Shown here piece by piece: positions 3,032-62,923 of a stretch of 64,000 nucleotides of DNA. Position 1 is the first letter of the stretch. Each line of letters begins with the position of its first letter. The position numbers and the translations under genes are program-made. The notes under the pieces were generated by a model, which searched no databases, had not been told where the DNA came from, and was given only the letters and a program-made list of their open reading frames with translations. The stretch comes from Oscillospiraceae bacterium (GTDB lineage: Bacteria; Bacillota; Clostridia; Oscillospirales; Oscillospiraceae): positions 221 through 64,220 of the forward strand of contig JAISJH010000068.1 in assembly GCA_031261635.1 (NCBI GenBank), written 5' to 3'.

Positions 3032-3509
3032 AAAAACTGTCGCGGTTTTCAAGGGTTTAGTGTTTTTGCTGATACTATACCTCTTGCAAACGGGAGTGTT
3101 TCCGCATTTGCGTATATACGGCGTTGCGCCTCTGCTGCTGCCCGCCGGGGTGATTGTGATTGCGCTGCTAAAAGTCGGGCAGTCGGGCGGCGTCTGGGGA
3201 ATAACCGCAGGAATACTCTGCGATATGAGCGTGGGCGATTCGCCGCTGATGTGTACGCTGTTTCTGGGAGCGGCGGGGCTTGCCGCGAGCTACCTGGCAC
3301 AGCATTTTCTGGCGAGGACGTTTTTAACGTTTATAACGGTCACGGCGCTCGCGCTGATACTGCTCGCGGCGGTGCAGGCGGCTCCGCTGATGATTTTCGC
3401 GAGGGTAAACATACGCGCAGTCCTCCCGGTAGCCGCCGCGCAGACGGTCTACAGCCTCGCGCTATCGGCGGCAGTATGGCCGCTTGGACAATTGATAATT
3501 GATAATTGA
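3012..3509 (+). CDS. mreD: rod shape-determining protein MreD-like membrane protein
   Basis: About 165 aa, 4-5 TM, with a GGVWGITAGILCDMSVG motif resembling the MreD G..G.L.D core. It lies upstream of PBP2. ATG at 3012 (GTG 2997 is an alternative). The last codons are read out of an AT-rich heptad repeat. Confidence 0.55.
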   Translation: MLSITAKKTVAVFKGLVFLLILYLLQTGVFPHLRIYGVAPLLLPAGVIVIALLKVGQSGGVWGITAGILCDMSVGDSPLMCTLFLGAAGLAASYLAQHFLARTFLTFITVTALALILLAAVQAAPLMIFARVNIRAVLPVAAAQTVYSLALSAAVWPLGQLIIDN

Positions 3510-3530
3510 TAATTGACAATTGACAATTAT
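3489..3530. repeat. AT-rich heptad tandem repeat (6 x 7 bp: CAATTGA/TAATTGA)
   Basis: caattga taattga taattga taattga caattga caattat. It spans the mreD stop codon. Confidence 0.9.
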
Positions 3531-6393: not shown

Positions 6394-6892
6394 ACAGTTA
6401 TCAAATATCAAATATCAGAGACGTTAGTTCAGATAACAGTTATCAGATATCAAATATCAGAGACGGGGGTTTTGGACGAAAGGTGCGCCGCGTGACGTAG
6501 GGGCGGGTTTCAAACCCGCCCTCCCCCGCGCCGTGCGCGGGGTGCGCCGTCCCGGCGCAGGGCAGGGCGTTGCCCTGCCCGTCATTGCGAGCCGCGCGAA
6601 GCAATCCAAGCCCAGTATCCCCCGTCCTGCCCCACGTCCCACGTCCCACGTCCCACGTCCTACGTCCCACGTTCAGCGTCCCGGCGCCGTGCGCCGTCTT
6701 TGCGAAGCACCGGTAAGCCTGCGATACGCAGAACGTTACAGGTGCGAAGCAATCCAGTGCCGGGAGGATAACTTACGGACTACGTATCGCAGGATACTAC
6801 GTCAACCCGGGCTTGGCTTCGCCCTGCCGCGCGCCGGGGCGATTTCCCCGCGCACGGCGCGTGGAGGGCGGGTTTGAAACCCGCCCCTACGT
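6394..6892. repeat. composite intergenic mosaic repeat (two AT-rich terminal modules plus GC-rich palindrome chain)
   Basis: Terminal modules at 6394-6423 and 6436-6465. The GGGGCGGGTTTCAAACCCGCCC hairpin near the left end is mirrored at 6863-6892. Also present: GTCATTGCGAGCCGCG, a CACGTCC 7-mer run at about 6632-6672, and the CAATCCAGTGCCGG core at 6750-6763. Confidence 0.85.
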
Positions 6893-12077: not shown

Positions 12078-12772
12078 AGGCGCACCCCCCTCTAAAGAGG
12101 GGGGCTTTGGAGGGAGGGACGAGGGTTGCGGGGGAAAGATTGAGGGGCTACGTAGGGGCGGGGTTCAAACCCGCCCTCCTCCGTCCCGGCGCCCTCCTCC
12201 GTCCCGGCGCCCTCCTCCGTCCCGGCGCCCTCCTCCGTCCCGGCGCCGTGCGCCGTCTTTGCGAAGCACCGGTAAGCCCGCGATACGTAGGACGTTACAG
12301 GTGCGAAGCAATCCAGTGCCGGGGGGACAACATACGTCCCAACGTATCTTGGGTACCTACGTCAACCCTGGATTGCTTCGCCGCATATCATCGGTACGTA
12401 TCGCAAGTGCGGTGGCGGCTTCGCAAAGACGGTGCGCCGGGGGGCGCACCACGGGCAGGGCGAAGCCCCGCCCTGTCCCGGCGCAATGCGCCGGGACGGT
12501 GGACGGGGTTACGCCGCGCACGGCGCGGGGAGGGGTTTTGCACACGTCTGTAGGGGCGAGGCTCGCCTCGCCCGGTTGCCAATTTCCCCCGGTTGCCAGT
12601 TTTACCCCAGTAATCCGGGCGAGGCAAGCCTCGCACCTACAGACCGCAACGTACATTTGGAAACCCCGCAACCCCCGTCCAAACCCCCGTCTCTGATATT
12701 TGATATTTGATATTTGATAACTGTTATCTGTTATTTGCTATCTGTTATTTGCTGTCTGCTATCTGATAACTG
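12078..12772. repeat. composite intergenic mosaic repeat with an 18-mer x4 tandem array and an 11-unit heptad tail
   Basis: CCCTCCTCCGTCCCGGCG x4 at 12174-12245. Nested palindrome GTCTTTGCGAAGC...CAATCCAGTGCCGG (12309-12322)...CTGGATTGCTTCGC...GCTTCGCAAAGAC. Terminal module CGTCTCTGATATTTGATATTT followed by TGNTATY heptads to 12772. Confidence 0.9.
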
Positions 12773-12782
12773 AAAAAAGCCC

Positions 12783-14072: not shown

Positions 14073-14515
14073 ACAGTTATCAAATATCAAATATCAGAGA
14101 CGATGGGTTGGACGAGGGTTGCGGAGATGGAACAGGCAAATTCCCCTCTTGGGAGGGGTGGCGCGAAGCGCCGGGGTGGTCTCCCGCCGCAGCGACCGTA
14201 CTCCGTCCCTCCCCCGTCATTGCGAGCCGCGGTAAGCTTGCGATACGTAGCAATGAGACCGGCGCGGCAATCCAGTGCCGGGGGCGTAACTTACGGTATC
14301 TGTGGCTTATACTACTGGATTGCTTCGCGCCTAAACCTTGGTTGTATGTTAAGTTTTCCGGCGCTCGCAAAGACGGTGCGCCGGGACGTAAGACGTAGGA
14401 CGTAGGTCATTGGACGTAGAACGTAGAACGAGGCTTGCGCGGCAACGCGGTTCATATACCCCGCGCAATGACAATCGTCCCATTATTCATTATTAACTAT
14501 TCACTATTCATTAAT
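14073..14515. repeat. composite intergenic mosaic repeat
   Basis: Terminal module at 14073-14102, CCCCTCTTGGGAGGGG hairpin, GTCATTGCGAGCCGCG...CAATCCAGTGCCGG...CTGGATTGCTTCGCGCC...GGCGCTCGCAAAGAC nested palindrome, GGACGTAG 7-8-mer run, and an ATTATTC/ACTATTC heptad tail abutting the SD of the next gene. Confidence 0.85.
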
Positions 14516-15341: not shown

Positions 15342-15740
15342 ACAGTTAGCAAATATCAAATATCAGAGACGTGGGGTTTGGACGCGGGGTGCGTTTGCGC
15401 GTTATTACACGCCCGTAGGGGCGGGTTTCAAACCCGCCCTCCCCCGTCCCGGTGCCGTGCGCCGAGGGCGGGGCGTAGCCCCAGCCCGTCATTGCGAGCC
15501 GCGGAACGCGTAAGATACGTAGGATTGAAACCGGCGCGGCAATCCAGTGCCGGGAGCGTAACTTACGTATCTGTGGCTTATACTTACGGTATCTGAGGCT
15601 TATCCTACTGGATTGCTTCGCGCCTAAACCTTGGTTGTATGTTGAGCCTCCCGGCGCTCGCAATGACGAACTCTTAAATCTCCGCGCTAACGCTTAAATT
15701 CTCGCATTATTCATTATTAAATATTAACTATTCATTATAT
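15342..15740. repeat. composite intergenic mosaic repeat
   Basis: Terminal module at 15342-15371 (ACAGTTAGCAAATATCAAATATCAGAGACG), GGGGCGGGTTTCAAACCCGCCC, the GTCATTGCGAGCCGCG...CAATCCAGTGCCGG...CTGGATTGCTTCGCGCC...GCGCTCGCAATGAC palindrome, and an ATTATTC heptad tail. Confidence 0.85.
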
Positions 15741-16689: not shown

Positions 16690-16992
16690 AACTCAGCCCC
16701 TGCCCCCTTCCGGAGAAGGGGGTGCCTCCGCAGAGGCGGGGGTTGTTCTCTAAGAATTGCGGTAACCCTTAAAGACCAACCCCCGCCGCCTGCGGGCGGC
16801 ACCCCCTTCGTGCGCGAAGGGGGCAGGGAGCGGGAATAGTGCGCGATAAACCGCGTCCCTACGTCCCGCCGCCTGCGGGCGGCACCCCCTTCGTGCGCGA
16901 AGGGGGCAGGGAGCGGGAATAGGGCGCGATAAATCGCGCCCCTACGTCCCGCCCCCGTCTCTGATATTTGATATTTGATAACTGTTAACTGA
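16690..16992. repeat. composite intergenic mosaic repeat containing an 83-bp tandem duplication
   Basis: CCCGCCGCCTGCGGGCGGCACCCCCTTCGTGCGCGAAGGGGGCAGGGAGCGGGAATAG.GCGCGATAAA.CGCG.CCCTACGT occurs twice (16782-16864 and 16865-16947). The terminal module CGTCTCTGATATTTGATATTTGATAACTGT is at 16956-16985. Confidence 0.9.
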
Positions 16993-17976: not shown

Positions 17977-17984
17977 TTTAATTG

Positions 17985-18090
17985 ACAATTGATAATGAAT
18001 AATGAATAATTTCAAATCTTTTATCGGAGCTTTTGAGTTTACATTATTCTTTATTCATTATTCACTATTCACTATCACTATCACTATTCA
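17985..18090. repeat. AT-rich heptad repeat spacer
   Basis: Runs of GAATAAT/CAATTGA, then ATTCATT/ATTCACT/ATCACT units up to the SD of the BKACE gene. Confidence 0.8.
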
Positions 18091-18102
18091 TTGGAGGAAA
18101 CA

Positions 18103-24632: not shown

Positions 24633-25148
24633 GCGTCCAAACCCTCGTCCCACGTATCGGCGCGGTGCGCCGGGGCGGGGCTTGCCCCTGCCCGTCATTG
24701 CGAGCCGCGGAACGTTTGCGATACGTACCATTGAGACCGGCGCGGCAATCCAGTGCCGGGAGCGTAACTTACGTATCTGCGGACTGCGGCACTGGATTGC
24801 TTCGCGCCTATAACCGCGTTGTATGTTAGGCTTCCCGGCGCTTCGCAATGACGGACTTTTTAGCTTTTTGGGATACAATAACCCGCGCCCAAACCCTCGT
24901 CCCGTGTATCGGCGCGGTGCGCCGGGAAACCACCCCGCCGCTGCGGCGGCACCCCTCCCAAGAGGGGAATAGGACGAAAATAGGACGAGGGTTGCGAAGT
25001 TGCCGTAATCTTACAGAAACGCAGAGACAAAATTCCCCTCTTGGGAGGGGTGGCGCGTAGCGCCGGGGTGGTATCCCCGCGCCGTGCGCGGACGTAACCG
25101 CGTCCAAGCCCCGTAATTATTCATTATTCACTATTACATATTCATTGT
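24633..25148. repeat. composite intergenic mosaic repeat with an internal about 250-bp-spaced duplication
   Basis: GCG.CCAAACCCTCGTCCC..GTATCGGCGCGGTGCGCCGGG occurs at about 24633 and about 24883. Also present: the GTCATTGCGAGCCGCG...CAATCCAGTGCCGG...CTGGATTGCTTCGCGCC palindrome, CCCCTCTTGGGAGGGG, and an ATTATTC heptad tail. Confidence 0.85.
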
Positions 25149-26690: not shown

Positions 26691-27425
26691 ACAGTTATCA
26701 AATATCAAATATCAGAGACGGAATTACAAATAACAGTTAACAAATATCAGATATCAGAGACGAGAGTTTGGACGAGGGTTGCGTCCTGCGGGAGGCACCC
26801 CCCGCGCTTGCGGGCGGCACGTGCGCTCTCTAAAGAGGGGGGCTTTGGAGGGCAGGACGTAGGGGCGGGTTTCAAACCCGCCCTCCCCCGCGCCGTGCGC
26901 GGGGTGCGCCGGAACGGCGACCTCCCCCGTCCCGGCGCACCGTCATTGCGAGCCGCGCGAAGCAATCCAAGCCCAATACCTACGTCCAGCCCCCGTCCAC
27001 CGTCCCGGCGCGTCCACCGTCCCGGCGCCGTGCGCCGTCTTTGCGAAGCACCGGTAAGCTCGCGATACGTAGGGCGTTACAGGTGCGAAGCAATCCAGTG
27101 CCGGGGGGAAAACATACGTCGTATCGCAGGGTACTACGTCAACCCTGGATTGCTTCGCCGCATATCAATGGTACGTATCGCAAGTGCGGTGGCGGCTCGC
27201 AATGACGGGCAGGGCGAAGCCCTGCCCTGTCCCGGCGCATTGCGCCGGGACGGTGGACGGGGTTACGCCCGCGCACTGCGCGGGGTTGGGCGGGTTTCGC
27301 ACCCGCCCCTACGTAGCCCCGTCCAATCCCCGTCCAACCCCCGTCCAATCCCCGTCCTATTCCCCTCTTGGGAGGGGTGCCCCCGCAGGTGCGGGGTGGT
27401 TTTCCCGCGCCGTGCGCGGCCAATT
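26691..27425. repeat. composite intergenic mosaic repeat (largest copy, about 735 bp)
   Basis: Terminal modules at 26691-26720 and 26733-26762, GGGGCGGGTTTCAAACCCGCCC, GTCATTGCGAGCCGCGCGAAGCAATCCAAGCCC, the GTCTTTGCGAAGC...CAATCCAGTGCCGG...CTGGATTGCTTCGCC palindrome, GGGCAGGGCGAAGCCCTGCCC, and CCCGGCGCATTGCGCCGGG. The 299-aa track ORF here is R/P/G-rich and spurious. Confidence 0.9.
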
Positions 27426-27512: not shown

Positions 27513-27707
27513 ACGAAAAACAGGCTTGAGGAGCTTCGCAAAGAGCGCGGAGTATTGCAGGAGCAGCTTGCGGAGGCCGTCGGCGTTTCGCGCCAAACTA
27601 TCGGCTCGCTCGAGAACGGACGCTATAATCCGTCGATTATCCTCGCGTTCAAACTCGCGCGGTATTTCAATCTGAAAATTGAGGACATATTTCTTTACAA
27701 TGAATAG
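27513..27707 (+). CDS. small XRE/Cro-family HTH regulator (YozG-like); no canonical start codon
   Basis: KNRLEELRKERGVLQEQLAEAVGVSRQTIGSLENGRYNPSIILAFKLARYFNLKIEDIF. Between the promoter and this sequence there is no in-frame ATG/GTG/TTG. An ACG at 27513 lies 4 nt after GGGGGGTGA. Confidence 0.65.
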   Translation, partial: TKNRLEELRKERGVLQEQLAEAVGVSRQTIGSLENGRYNPSIILAFKLARYFNLKIEDIFLYNE

Positions 27708-27756
27708 TTAATAGTGAATAATGAATAATTGTCGCGCTTTTGCGCGGGGAGGGACT

Positions 27757-53200: not shown

Positions 53201-53401
53201 TGGCTTGTCGATTGGGTGTACCCGACTTGGTCTGGTAGTGCGGTTTACACCACGGCACCATTTGACACTGAAGCTAATTTCCAGGCATACGTTGTCACAC
53301 AATTAGAAGCTGCGTTGAACGCGTATGTCGGTACCGGAGGTGTCGCTGGTAAAGCTTCCGCAACAGATATCGCCACATTTATCAAGACGCTTATAGCGTA
53401 A
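50256..53401 (+). CDS. silent S-layer (SLH-domain) protein cassette 5: no promoter, SD, start codon or signal peptide
   Basis: GTSAAAVDKQADYTVTGAANSGLIGETLAKW..., then the SLH-like region (TFSRGSAATLLAKAYTTP; AGWAYAYGFMSGT..FSP; MLVKMLGY; DIARFANEVGLF..ITYEQAAKITVNAL) and a divergent C-terminal part. Confidence 0.8.
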
Positions 53402-53426
53402 CGAAATCCTGCGGCGACGCAAATAG

Positions 53427-53453
53427 ACAGCCCCCCACGGGGGGCTGTTGACT
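53427..53453 (+). terminator. cassette-end hairpin (degenerate copy; -35 present, no -10)
   Basis: ACAGCCCCCCACGGGGGGCTGT, then TGACTTTTT. It lies between the convergent cassette 5 and the methylase-like gene. Confidence 0.55.
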
Positions 53454-53463
53454 TTTTCGCGCC

Positions 53464-53943
53464 TCAGTTAGCGTAAGGCTCCCTCACTACCGTGAAATTT
53501 CGCCGGCCCTTTAGTTCCGCCGGGAGGGCAGAGGGCAGCACCAGCAGTGGTTCGTTTTTGTCGCAGAGCGCCTCGCCGGCGTTTGCGGCTTCGGCGCAGA
53601 AGTGCGTTATGCCGGGGACGGTTGCGGTTTCGTAGCCCAGTTCGGCAACGCGCCGCCGTATCTGCGTGAACGCCGAGTACACCGAGGGGTCGCCGGGCGT
53701 TATGAACGCCACGGATTTGCCTGCACCGAGCTGTTTCGCGATAGCGTCCGCGGCGGTCTGCGCGGGACACAGCAGGAGCGCCTTGCCGCGTATGTAGCGC
53801 TCGGCAATGCCCAGCGCGGCGTGCCCGCTGCCGCGTTCGGAGGCGGCGATGATGTCCGCGCTCCAGAGAATGTTGACGGCTTTGAGCGTCAGAAGTTCGG
53901 GGTCGCCGGGTCCCACACCAATTCCGTACAGTATGCCTTTCAT
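53464..53943 (-). CDS. tetrapyrrole methylase family protein, CobI/CbiL-like but short (possible remnant)
   Basis: LYGIGVGPGDPELLTLKAVNIL and VAFITPGDPSVYSAF...TVPGITHFCAEAA match precorrin-2 C20-methyltransferase motifs. At 159 aa it lacks most of the C-terminal subdomain, and there are no other cob/cbi genes nearby. Confidence 0.55.
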   Translation of the reverse strand: MKGILYGIGVGPGDPELLTLKAVNILWSADIIAASERGSGHAALGIAERYIRGKALLLCPAQTAADAIAKQLGAGKSVAFITPGDPSVYSAFTQIRRRVAELGYETATVPGITHFCAEAANAGEALCDKNEPLLVLPSALPAELKGRRNFTVVREPYAN

Positions 53944-54006
53944 ATGTCCGCCTCCTTATAGTTTTCCGCTTATGGTTTACGTAGCAACATTAGAGTACCT
54001 CTAAGG

Positions 54007-54044
54007 ATAAAAATCTCGCGTAGCTTCCGTTGAAAGTACGCGAG
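54007..54044 (-). terminator. terminator-like hairpin inside the 5' leader of the methylase-like gene (possible attenuator)
   Basis: On the minus strand: CTCGCGTA-N14-TACGCGAG followed by ATTTTTAT, about 60 nt upstream of the ATG. Confidence 0.4.
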
Positions 54045-54068
54045 GCTTATTACTCTAAACGTTAGCTA

Positions 54069-54097
54069 AGTATAACATTTTTCGCCATTTTTGTCAA
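54069..54097 (-). promoter_or_regulatory. sigma-A promoter of the methylase-like gene
   Basis: TTGACA (54097-54092), 17-nt spacer, TATACT (54074-54069). Confidence 0.65.
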
Positions 54098-54128
54098 TAG
54101 TAAAATATTGGGAACGCAATCTTTAGTT

Positions 54129-54585
54129 AACAGTTATCAAATATCAAATATCAGAGCCGGTGTAACAGTTAACAGTTAGCAAATATCAAATATTAGAGAC
54201 GGGGGGCTTGGACGGGGGGCGCGTCCGCGCTCGGCGCGGGAAACCACCCCGGCGCTACGCGCCACCCCTCCCAAGAGGGGAATTTTCCGCGCACGGCGCG
54301 GGGACGGAATACAACCCCTGCATACGGTTCCCGCGTGCGCGCCCCTATTCCCCTCTTGGGAGGGGTGCCGCCGCAGCGGCGGGGTGGTTTCCCCCGCAGG
54401 GCGCAACTCCCGTCCAAACCTTTCGTCTCTGATATTTGATATTTGCTATCTGTTAACTGAACTTTCGTCTCTGATATTTAATATTTAATAACTGTTAACT
54501 GAACTTTCGTCTCTGATATTTGATATTTAATAACTGTTAACTGAACTATCGTCTCTGATATTTGATATTTGCTAACTGTTAACTG
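54129..54585. repeat. composite mosaic repeat ending in a 4 x 42-bp tandem array of the terminal module
   Basis: Terminal modules at 54129-54158 and 54164-54200, and paired CCCCTCTTGGGAGGGG / GAAACCACCCCGGCG palindromes. CGTCTCTGATATTTGATATTTGCTAACTGTTAACTGAACT.T starts at 54424, 54466, 54508 and 54550. The last unit supplies the hemW stop codon. Confidence 0.9.
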
Positions 54586-55781
54586 ATTAAAGCGTAGTAG
54601 TCGTCCTCTCGCCAGGGGGTTCCTACTTGGGATTTACGTTCCGCCTGGGCGTCGAGGAGTTCGCCGATTAGCCTGTTGGAGAGGAGGAAGCCTTTGGGGG
54701 TCAGGAGGTAGGCGTCGCCGCGTTTTCGCGCGAAGCCTAGTTTTTCGTAGGTCACGAGCGTTTTTTCGAGGGTGTCGAAGCCTCCGCGGTAGATTTGCTC
54801 GTAGCCCTGCCGCGTAATGCCGCGCGTTGTGCGAAGCCCGAGCATAATGTACTCGGCGGCCTTGCTGTAGGCGTTCAGCGTTTCGCTGTCCTCGTCGTTG
54901 ACGACGTTAGTCCCGCCCTCGACCGCCGCGATGTAAGCGTCGGGCGAGCGCAGGTAGCTGTAGCGCGAGTTACCGAGAAACGAAGCCGCCGAAGCTCCGA
55001 AGCCGGCGTACTCCTCCAGAAGCCAGTATTTGAGGTTGTGCCGCGACTCGAAGCCCTTTCGCGCGAAGTTTGAGATTTCGTATTGAGCGAAGCCCGCGCC
55101 GCCGAGCGTATCGACCGCGTAGAGGTACATATCCGCCTGCATATCGTCGTCGGGGATATCGGGAGCGCGGCGTACCCGCCAGAGCGGCGTATTGCGCTCG
55201 ATTTTCAGCCCGTAGGCCGATATATGCTGCGGAGCGGAGCGCAGAACGCCGCTTAGTGTCTGCGCCCAGTCCTCACGCGTCTGCCCCGGCAGGCCGTAGA
55301 TTATGTCAACGCTGACGTTTTCAAAACCCGCGAGCTTCGCGTCAAGCACAGCGTCAAGCGCAAGCTCGGCGTTATGCAAACGCCCAAGGTTCGAGAGCTG
55401 CGCGTTATTGAGCGTCTGCACCCCGATTGAGATACGGTTGAAGCCGTCCCTGCGAAGAAGCTTCAGCTCGTCCCGCCGTATGCTCTCGGGGTTTGCCTCG
55501 AACGTAATCTCCGGGGTTTTGGAAATTTTATAGTCCCTGTCGATAGCCGATAGGAGCCTCGACAGCCGCTTCGCCCCGTAGTGGGTAGGCGTCCCGCCGC
55601 CGAAGTAAATTGTATCCACTTCATACCCCTCAAGGCGCGGCGCGAACTCGCGCAAATGCTTCAAAAGCGCACGCTGGTAGGCGTCCATAAGCCCGTCCTT
55701 ATCGGGAAATGAACAGAAATCGCAGTAAACACACTTCGATTTGCAAAACGGCAGATGGACGTAAATCCCGATGTTTCTCAT
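54579..55781 (-). CDS. hemW: radical SAM heme chaperone HemW (coproporphyrinogen III oxidase-like)
   Basis: YVHLPFCKSKCVYCDF is the CxxxCxxC cluster motif, with a HemN-like C-terminal domain; 400 aa. Confidence 0.9.
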   Translation of the reverse strand: MRNIGIYVHLPFCKSKCVYCDFCSFPDKDGLMDAYQRALLKHLREFAPRLEGYEVDTIYFGGGTPTHYGAKRLSRLLSAIDRDYKISKTPEITFEANPESIRRDELKLLRRDGFNRISIGVQTLNNAQLSNLGRLHNAELALDAVLDAKLAGFENVSVDIIYGLPGQTREDWAQTLSGVLRSAPQHISAYGLKIERNTPLWRVRRAPDIPDDDMQADMYLYAVDTLGGAGFAQYEISNFARKGFESRHNLKYWLLEEYAGFGASAASFLGNSRYSYLRSPDAYIAAVEGGTNVVNDEDSETLNAYSKAAEYIMLGLRTTRGITRQGYEQIYRGGFDTLEKTLVTYEKLGFARKRGDAYLLTPKGFLLSNRLIGELLDAQAERKSQVGTPWREDDYYALIS

Positions 55782-62431: not shown

Positions 62432-62895
62432 CTCCCCGCAGGACGCACCCCCCGCCTCTGCGGAGGCACCCCCCTCTAAAGAGGGGGGCTTTGGAGGGTA
62501 GGACGGAGATGCGCCGCGCACGGCGCGGGCGCAACCCCCGTCCAATCCCACGTCCCGGCGCAGTGCGCCGTCTTTGCGAGCCGCGGAACGCTTGCGATAC
62601 GTAGCATTGAGACCGGCGCGGCAATCCAGTGCCGCAGTCAGCAGATACGTATGTTATGTTCCCGGCAAATACGTATGTTACGCTCCCGGCACTGGATTGC
62701 TTCGCGCCTGTAATGTTCTACGTATCGCAAGTGCGGCGGCGCTCGCAAAGACGGCGCACGGCGCCGGGACGTAGGACGCAGGCGCGGGGGGTGCCGCGTC
62801 CCCCGTCCAAACCCACGTCTCTGATATCTGATATTTGCTAACTGTTAACTGAACCACCGTCTCTGATATTTGATATTTGCTAACTGTTATCTGGT
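62432..62895. repeat. composite intergenic mosaic repeat ending in a 2 x 42-bp terminal-module array
   Basis: CCCCTCTAAAGAGGGG hairpin, the GTCTTTGCGAGCCGCG...CAATCCAGTGCCGC...CCGGCACTGGATTGCTTCGCGCC...GCGCTCGCAAAGAC palindrome, and terminal modules starting at 62816 and 62858. Confidence 0.9.
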
Positions 62896-62923
62896 AAAAA
62901 TAACTGTTATTTAGGTGCAACTT

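Follow-up and report, generated by a model that had tools for sequence, protein, structure and literature searches.

The short tandemly repeated repetitive sequences (STRRs) of cyanobacteria have been used as typing markers for decades, and we know of no mechanism or function for STRRs or for heptanucleotide repeats in general. Here we analyze a tandem array of 42-bp units, each composed of six heptads, at positions 54424-54585 of a 64,000-nucleotide stretch of DNA (the window) from a gut bacterium of the Oscillospiraceae (assembly GCA_031261635.1, contig JAISJH010000068.1). The genome carrying the window, G000, is a metagenome-assembled genome (MAG) of 2.31 Mb in 125 contigs, with 53% GC and 89% completeness. 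It was compared with a sister species of the same genus, G001 (Oscillospiraceae bacterium Hs463_bin82), an independent MAG with ~75-87% DNA identity to G000 in genes. The STRR units CAACAGT and TTGGTCA are near-identical to the TGTTAAC array in G000 and to TGACCAC in the sister species.

The STRRs of cyanobacteria have a repeat unit of 7 bp and fold into hairpins in the gaps separating operon genes, e.g. hupS-hupL; it has been suggested that they act in the stability of transcripts or in the coupling of translation (PMC2670836). TAACTGA direct repeats, with 2-6 copies per set and mostly a few nucleotides upstream of starts, occur sporadically in Beggiatoaceae, Cyanobacteria and Bacteroidetes (MacGregor 2015, PMC4679880). 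In prokaryotes rich in repeats, heptanucleotides are the most abundant class of long simple sequence repeats (LSSRs) and may have arisen through polymerase slippage (Mrázek 2007, as summarised in PMC4679880). The heptad tracts analyzed here belong to this published class (PMC4679880, PMC2670836). Like STRRs they consist of tandem 7-bp units in intergenic DNA, often between operon genes, and can form hairpins. They differ from STRRs in occurring in Clostridia, in having a fixed 42-bp higher-order unit that itself amplifies, and in forming arms that enclose a GC-rich hairpin mosaic with conserved CGTCC-AAAC linkers; with ~700 units in 2.3 Mb, G000 is an extreme case. The outer heptads read TAACTGT and TAACTGA, as in the TAACTGA repeats, whereas half of the arrays here abut stop codons. 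The TAACTGA and LSSR reports describe single-heptamer direct repeats; inverted arms, a foldback architecture and a relative bearing an open reading frame (ORF) are new relative to them.

We conclude, with a probability of roughly 65%, that a gene-less foldback lies between the hemW 3' end and the next gene's promoter, that 54424-54585 forms its right arm, and that this foldback belongs to a selfish, STRR-like class that is probably related to cassettes carrying a PF05635 gene. The locus is made up as follows:

54115-54595 (arms 54122-54591, 470 bp), no strand assigned: the whole ORF-less foldback, which folds as one hairpin
54122-54201, minus strand: left arm, two inverted units of the 42-bp module, the outer with CGGCTC and the inner with CGTCTC TAATATT
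54202-54423, no strand assigned: GC-rich core, nested hairpin modules between the linkers GGGGGCTTGGACG (left) and CGTCCAAACCTTT (right)
54424-54591, plus strand: right arm, four tandem 42-bp units, of which unit 4 overlaps the hemW stop codon
54579-55781, minus strand: hemW (radical SAM); the module provides its four final codons (ALIS) and its TAA stop
54069-54097, minus strand: Sigma-70-type promoter (TTGACA-17-TATACT, TG-extended) of the downstream gene at 53464-53943, beginning ~25 bp outside the left arm

An earlier note on this DNA had read 54424-54585 as four tandem 42-bp units in a strict heptad register, and this reading stands. Tandem Repeats Finder (TRF) returned period 42 at 54420-54586 with 4.0 copies and 93% matches, and period-7 sub-arrays within each unit. 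The hexamer CGTCTC at the inner start of each unit, hereafter the anchor from which arrays and distances are counted, is located at 54424, 54466, 54508 and 54550. Including the base that precedes CGTCTC, six heptads were recovered in every copy of the array (TCGTCTC, TGATATT, TGATATT, TGMTAAC, TGTTAAC and TGAACNN, where the third TG-type heptad can also be written TG/AMTAAC). The private variant TTTAATAAC is common to units 2 and 3. Each unit has a sharp inner boundary at CGTCTC and a frayed outward end. Folded as single-stranded DNA, the whole 481 nt gave one long hairpin (dG = -157.4 kcal/mol vs. -63 for shuffles, z = -20.65), in which both left units find a partner among the four right units, leaving two right units looped out. 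Throughout the family the core is joined to the arms by linkers of the form GGGG(C)TTGGACG / CGTCCAAACC. A scan of 53400-55000 against Rfam gave no match at the gathering score and only sub-threshold matches to generic microRNA hairpins, and no intrinsic terminator was found in 53900-54700. What the earlier note had missed is that the heptad tracts are the inverted arms of foldbacks, and that these foldbacks are inserted relative to the sister species.

At three spacers the sister species has 18, 112 and 13 bp, compared to ~440, 610 and 500 bp of TGATATT-armed mosaic in G000. Upstream of remA, only 5 bp separates the two genes in the sister species and G000 has an arm of two units. In the BKACE operon, elements are present at the same four spacers in both species, with different heptad families and different cores. 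The arms at these two loci, and an extended arm elsewhere in the window, are:

62816-62899, plus strand: two-unit arm, the inner unit of the TGATATC..TGCTAAC..TGAACCAC type and the outer of the TGATATT type, stopping just short of the Shine-Dalgarno (SD) sequence and start of remA
17979-18093, no strand assigned: minimal foldback separating two BKACE-operon genes, with heptad arms of GAATAAT / ATTATTC; at this spacer the arm in the sister species is of the TGATATC type
12690-12773, plus strand: extended arm of ~11.7 consecutive TG-first heptads, with a TTGACA promoter box directly downstream

The TGATATT-armed family has bloomed in the G000 lineage, and its elements are insertions relative to the sister species. 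They fill the spacers as far as the adjoining stop codon, SD sequence or -35 box, and the last codons and stop are often overwritten. In the sister species, perfect runs have period 7 only (27 in a 46-kb repeat-rich sample, other periods essentially none), with the units ACCACTG, AGATATC and AGATAGC. Neither (CAGTGGT)2 nor (TAACCAC)2 occurs anywhere in G000, and (TAACTGA)2 occurs once. Judged from these two genomes, the period is conserved between the sister species and the heptad sequence is not. A period that is kept while the heptad sequence turns over points to the machinery of propagation or slippage rather than to a sequence-specific binding site or helical phasing.

Downstream of trmD, G000 has a 600-bp mosaic, and the corresponding spacer of the sister species (L012 3530-3585, G001:C91) contains a short (TCAGTGG/TCAGTGA)x4 run without a GC core. 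The latter may be a solo arm or a remnant.

The 20-mer core of the unit, CGTCTCTGATATTTGATATT, is present in G000 in 489 exact copies and, allowing up to one mismatch (near-exact), in 696 copies (341 forward, 355 reverse) at ~550 loci. Within the window, TGATATTTGATATT was found 28 times with at most one mismatch, compared to 0 in 100 shuffles. Among the relatives, the core occurs 24 times in the sister species and 0 times in 39 others. A genome-collection scan for the 20-mer returned, among the matches listed, the sister MAG and two single matches; a metagenome collection (Joint Genome Institute), in which the species is not represented, gave one unrelated chance match, and a viral collection gave none. 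Genome-wide, 99 two-armed elements with cores of 200-800 bp were counted at an inner length of at most 900 bp, and in 38 of them the two arms differ in unit number. Most of the 550 arrays have one unit (416), followed by two (119), three (12) and five (2), and the 54424 locus is the single array with four. Consecutive anchors are 42 bp apart in 130 of the 155 tandem cases, the exceptions including 35, 49 and 63 bp. Doublets have a fixed make-up, with an inner unit TGATATC..TGCTAAC..TGAACCAA and an outer unit TGATATT..TGATAAC. Each copy begins with leading TGATAT(T/C) heptads: 559 copies (79%) have two of them, 82 have three, 34 have one and 16 have four to six.

In the longer arrays, adjoining units have private variants in common, and inner units differ by a mean of 1.95 mismatches within an array vs. 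4.70 between arrays (0 of 10,000 random draws as low). The private variants, the similarity within arrays and the lengths in steps of seven together indicate that arm length changes in place, by 7 and by 42 bp. The earlier note had proposed either expansion by strand slippage or a protein of 7-bp footprint that binds iteratively; these data support expansion in situ, and the protein is weighed below. Duplication would occur by replication slippage or unequal recombination between tandem units, or alternatively by misaligned pairing of the two arms.

The heptad observation itself is confirmed and statistically overwhelming. Perfect tandem runs, defined as at least 2.5 copies of a unit and counted throughout G000, number 865 at period 7 vs. 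76 at period 6, 12 at period 8 and 15 at period 9, and as in the STRR/LSSR class 7-bp direct repeats exceed those of other unit lengths. The period-7 runs fall into at least 8 unit families (TGATATT 541, TGATAAT 94, TGAATAA 43, TGACAAT 29, TGTTATT 21, TGTTAAC 18, CCTACGT 14 and TGTTATC 13), and all AT-rich families can be written as TG plus five mostly A/T bases. In a genome-wide autocorrelation of AT-rich intergenic tracts, lag-7 identity was 0.396 vs. 0.287 in shuffled sequence, with further peaks at 14, 21, 28, 35 and 42; the GC-rich parts gave no such lag-7 peak. The peak was still clear with the main family taken out (z = 19) and disappeared (z = 0) once AT-rich tracts sharing a 12-mer were collapsed. 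Period 7 thus characterizes a few dispersed repeat families and not spacer DNA generally. The excess over shuffled AT-rich DNA that the earlier note proposed to look for is thus real and confined to these families, and 7-bp periodicity as a general trait of AT-rich spacers is ruled out by dereplication.

That the tracts abut gene ends and starts, as noted earlier for the window, holds genome-wide. The outward end of the array looks onto a stop codon 286 times, at a median distance of 36 bp from the anchor, and onto a gene start 258 times (median 76 bp). Stop-to-anchor distances peak at 22, 29 and 36 bp, one heptad apart. At 227 gene ends, out of ~1,900 crudely called ORFs of G000, the stop codon and a module anchor are 10-70 bp apart, with the stop mostly within the module or at its edge; the repeat family has thus changed the C-terminal codons of about one gene in ten. 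For hemW, comparison with a congener (proteins 91% identical) shows ...DYYALIS before the stop in G000 vs. ...DYYTVLG before the stop and then unique DNA in the congener, from which it follows that the module supplies the last four codons as well as the stop codon already attributed to it. The mreD gene provides a second case, likewise in agreement with what had been claimed:

3490-3528, plus strand: heptad arm (AATTGAT)x5.6, from which mreD takes its six final codons and its stop (...QLIIDN)

All three frames entering this (AATTGAT)n arm terminate in ...LIIDN and a stop. Seven is not a multiple of three, and a stop-containing heptad array therefore halts translation in all three frames within 21 nt. 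As a cause of the period, the all-frame stop was considered and rejected: it is true for TGATATT, TAATTGA and TAACCAC and fails for GAATGCA arms and for the inward-read (TGATATT)n strand. It is a consequence that eases tolerance, not the cause. Of the 258 start-facing arms, 89 have a TTGACA-N17-TATAAT promoter 0-20 bp downstream, and many others stop just before the SD sequence. G000 has 393 promoter-like sites in which the -35 context is extended (C-N-C-TTGACAA) and positions -6 to -10 from the hexamer are rich in A, and a TGATATT arm is immediately upstream of 89 (23%) of these recognisable promoters. The promoter was also considered as a part of the element; this was rejected, as C-N-C-TTGACAA is the general -35 consensus of the genome. 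The elements may be tolerated because their AT-rich, unstructured arms keep the GC-rich hairpin core away from stops, promoters and ribosome-binding sites.

A relationship to PF05635 cassettes is suggested by ORF-bearing elements of related genomes. PF05635 matches were found in 7 of 40 family genomes, plus G001 and G004, and in G002, G004, G049 and G051 the ORF lies between inverted heptad arrays (arms listed TTAATGA, AATTATA, AATTAGG and GAATGCA). In G002, G004 and G049 the cassette is flush between the neighbour's stop codon and the SD sequence of the next gene. The cassette of the sister species lies between a molybdopterin-enzyme-like gene and obg, with the TGA stop of its ORF within the first heptad:

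L032 1420-1883 (G001:C183), minus strand: PF05635 ORF of 117 aa, between (CAGTGGT)x3.4 plus linker CGGGGTTGGACGG and (TAACCAC)x8.7

The arms and linker of this cassette are exactly those of the ORF-less mosaics of the same genome, and the spacer upstream of obg in G000 (C59:10620-11016) contains an ORF-less mosaic with TGATATT arms. The obg-site cassette and the shared arms and linker support, without proving, a relationship like that between a transposon and its miniature inverted-repeat transposable elements (MITEs). The terminal repeats of the G000 element are inverted, as in MITEs, and its inverted tandem-heptad arms are flush between neighbouring genes, as in the PF05635 cassettes; an ORF between the arms is absent from it. 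PF05635 is homologous to Avd, an accessory protein of diversity-generating retroelements (PMC10053308). In Coxiella, the intervening sequence (IVS) is a selfish element with an S23p ORF that is excised by RNase III (PMC4990558). The likeness to such PF05635 / 23S_rRNA_IVP elements lies in a selfish element with terminal inverted repeats forming a stem, and the difference is that the G000 element has no ORF and sits between protein genes, not in 23S rRNA. No published link between PF05635 and heptanucleotide repeats was found in a literature search. We hypothesize that the elements are ORF-less derivatives of heptad-armed PF05635 (Avd / '23S rRNA IVS protein', four-helix-bundle) cassettes, as seen in three congeners, and that they would be mainly selfish DNA.

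Several observations weigh against our overall reading of the locus. Searches of G000 with a hidden Markov model and with tblastn gave no PF05635 gene, which does not prove its absence, as the MAG is 89% complete and 106 of its 250 contig ends (42%) stop in high-copy 12-mers; a repeat-flanked ORF could easily be missing from such an assembly. Between paired TGATATT arms of G000 only ordinary genes or short ORFs were found as cargo, and no candidate autonomous copy. Among the eight PF05635 loci examined, two to three are without clear heptad arms (one partial, two lacking). In G000, 352 arrays are one-armed or partnered with another heptad family. No direct repeat was recognisable as a target-site duplication outside the arms, whose outer ends are frayed, or at three filled-vs-empty sites, and no transposase was linked to the elements. 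We infer mobility from presence and absence between species at ~80% nucleotide identity, at which exact boundaries are blurred. The copy number of four at 54424-54591 derives from one short-read MAG assembly, and our overall reading does not account for the 7-bp step size.

Binding of the arrays by a 7-bp-footprint protein, comparable to the ribbon-helix-helix (RHH) protein omega/ParB of pSM19035, would make them operators or nucleoid organisers with an occupancy tuned by copy number. This possibility has a precedent for the exact register: omega/ParB coats 7-10 contiguous WATCACW heptads, one dimer per heptad, with four or more needed for function (PMC9499535). Like the omega parS arrays, those of G000 are contiguous, non-palindromic 7-bp repeats, with at least 4 contiguous heptads per unit and T-G at the start of nearly every heptad, and the 89 promoter-proximal arrays are in the UP-element position of strong promoters. 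However, TGATATT / AATATCA deviates from WATCACW at two core positions, and six plasmid arrays at specific promoters contrast with hundreds of chromosomal loci of changing sequence. The heptad is not conserved between the families of G000 or at orthologous spacers of the sister species, the dominant arms of the two species are mutually exclusive, stop-facing and start-facing arrays are about equally frequent, as are the two strands, and the heptad signal is limited to dispersed repeat families. We therefore consider a sequence-specific regulator with a 7-bp footprint, and with it this half of the mechanism proposed earlier, unlikely. A spread of repetitive extragenic palindromic (REP) sequences and bacterial interspersed mosaic elements (BIMEs) by a REP-associated tyrosine transposase (RAYT; Y1/HUH), with the AT-rich module as an internally repetitive BIME linker, is quite improbable. 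The mosaics do share with the REP/BIMEs of Enterobacteria their density in intergenic DNA, often within operons, a small vocabulary of hairpin modules, alternating orientation and a modular layout with BIME-2-like tandem amplification, and they have GTAG-plus-hairpin motifs in the GC-rich core (e.g. CGTAGGGGCGGGTTTCAAACCCGCCC) and recurrent TTGAT and TCAA motifs in the arm. Against this, Y1_Tnp (PF01797) matched none of six genus genomes (G000 and five congeners) in a search in which control genomes matched, and no RAYT was found. BIMEs are without heptad-array arms, and the AT-rich module is a string of direct repeats that is not palindromic, whereas the GC-rich core modules are. The heptad period is moreover found in many unrelated arm sequences and in REP-free PF05635 cassettes.

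Phase variation was a further candidate, as the copy number of both heptads and 42-bp units varies among loci and many arrays are located in 5' leaders or just upstream of promoters. In Haemophilus influenzae, slippage in the (ATCTTTC)n tract upstream of hmw1A sets the expression of the neighbour; the hmw1A/2A tract is likewise a 7-bp simple sequence repeat near a promoter, and its repeat-bearing RNA hairpin is cut by RNase III (PMC12721329). This is a single-locus switch at a surface adhesin and not a genome-wide family; the ~550 loci here are beside all kinds of genes, including the housekeeping genes hemW, trmD, obg, priA and mreD, half are downstream of genes, and exactly two leading heptads are present in 79% of copies. 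Contingency loci are hence a very unlikely explanation. Least probable of all is that the four-copy array is a mis-joined or mis-counted repeat of a short-read assembly. The fragmentation of the MAG and its repeat-bound contig ends would allow for such an error, and the one other assembly with the exact HemW protein (a 1.4-kb Logan contig) breaks 22 bp past the hemW stop. The four units nevertheless differ at diagnostic positions, which permits unambiguous assembly, the same 42-bp tandem spacing is found at 134 other loci, and the same architecture is present in the independent MAG of the sister species.

A wider proposal can be made tentatively: the heptad arms could be the cis sites of a widespread, so far undescribed class of mobile cassettes with a PF05635 (Avd-like) autonomous form, and the gene-less copies their MITE-like progeny. 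If true, this class would explain the dominance of 7-bp repeats in prokaryotes (STRRs, TAACTGA repeats and LSSRs), and the 7-bp step would reflect the reading of DNA or RNA by the PF05635 protein, or by a replication or repair intermediate that it provokes. The combination of G000 and its sister species, with empty sites, other heptads and an ORF-bearing orthologous cassette, makes the origin of the 7-bp step and a possible role of PF05635 in spreading such elements testable. For annotation, gene callers will be led astray by the elements at 3' ends. The 12-mers present at least 8 times cover 22% of G000, and the mosaic repeats are the main cause of its assembly fragmentation.

The remaining tracts listed in the earlier note were all found again. 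The two-copy 42-bp array at 62816 has anchors at 62816 and 62858, 42 bp apart, and the 11-heptad tract near 12690 was returned by TRF at 12692-12773 (x11.7). The others were recovered at 3490-3528 (the mreD arm), 14481-14513, 15705-15738, 18042-18092, 25116-25146, 897-927 and 27699-27729.

Tandem repeats are also found inside the mosaic cores. GC-rich heptad arrays are present in the window at 6631-6672 (CCCACGT x6) and 14384-14430 (GGACGTA x6.7), and the 7-bp step is therefore not limited to the AT-rich arms. Tandem units of 11, 17 and 18 bp, all with CGTCC, occur at 27317-27357, 26994-27028 and 12172-12247. In the mosaic tract at 16782-16953, an 83-bp GC-rich module is repeated in tandem (x2.1, 96% identity), which shows that core modules, too, amplify in place.

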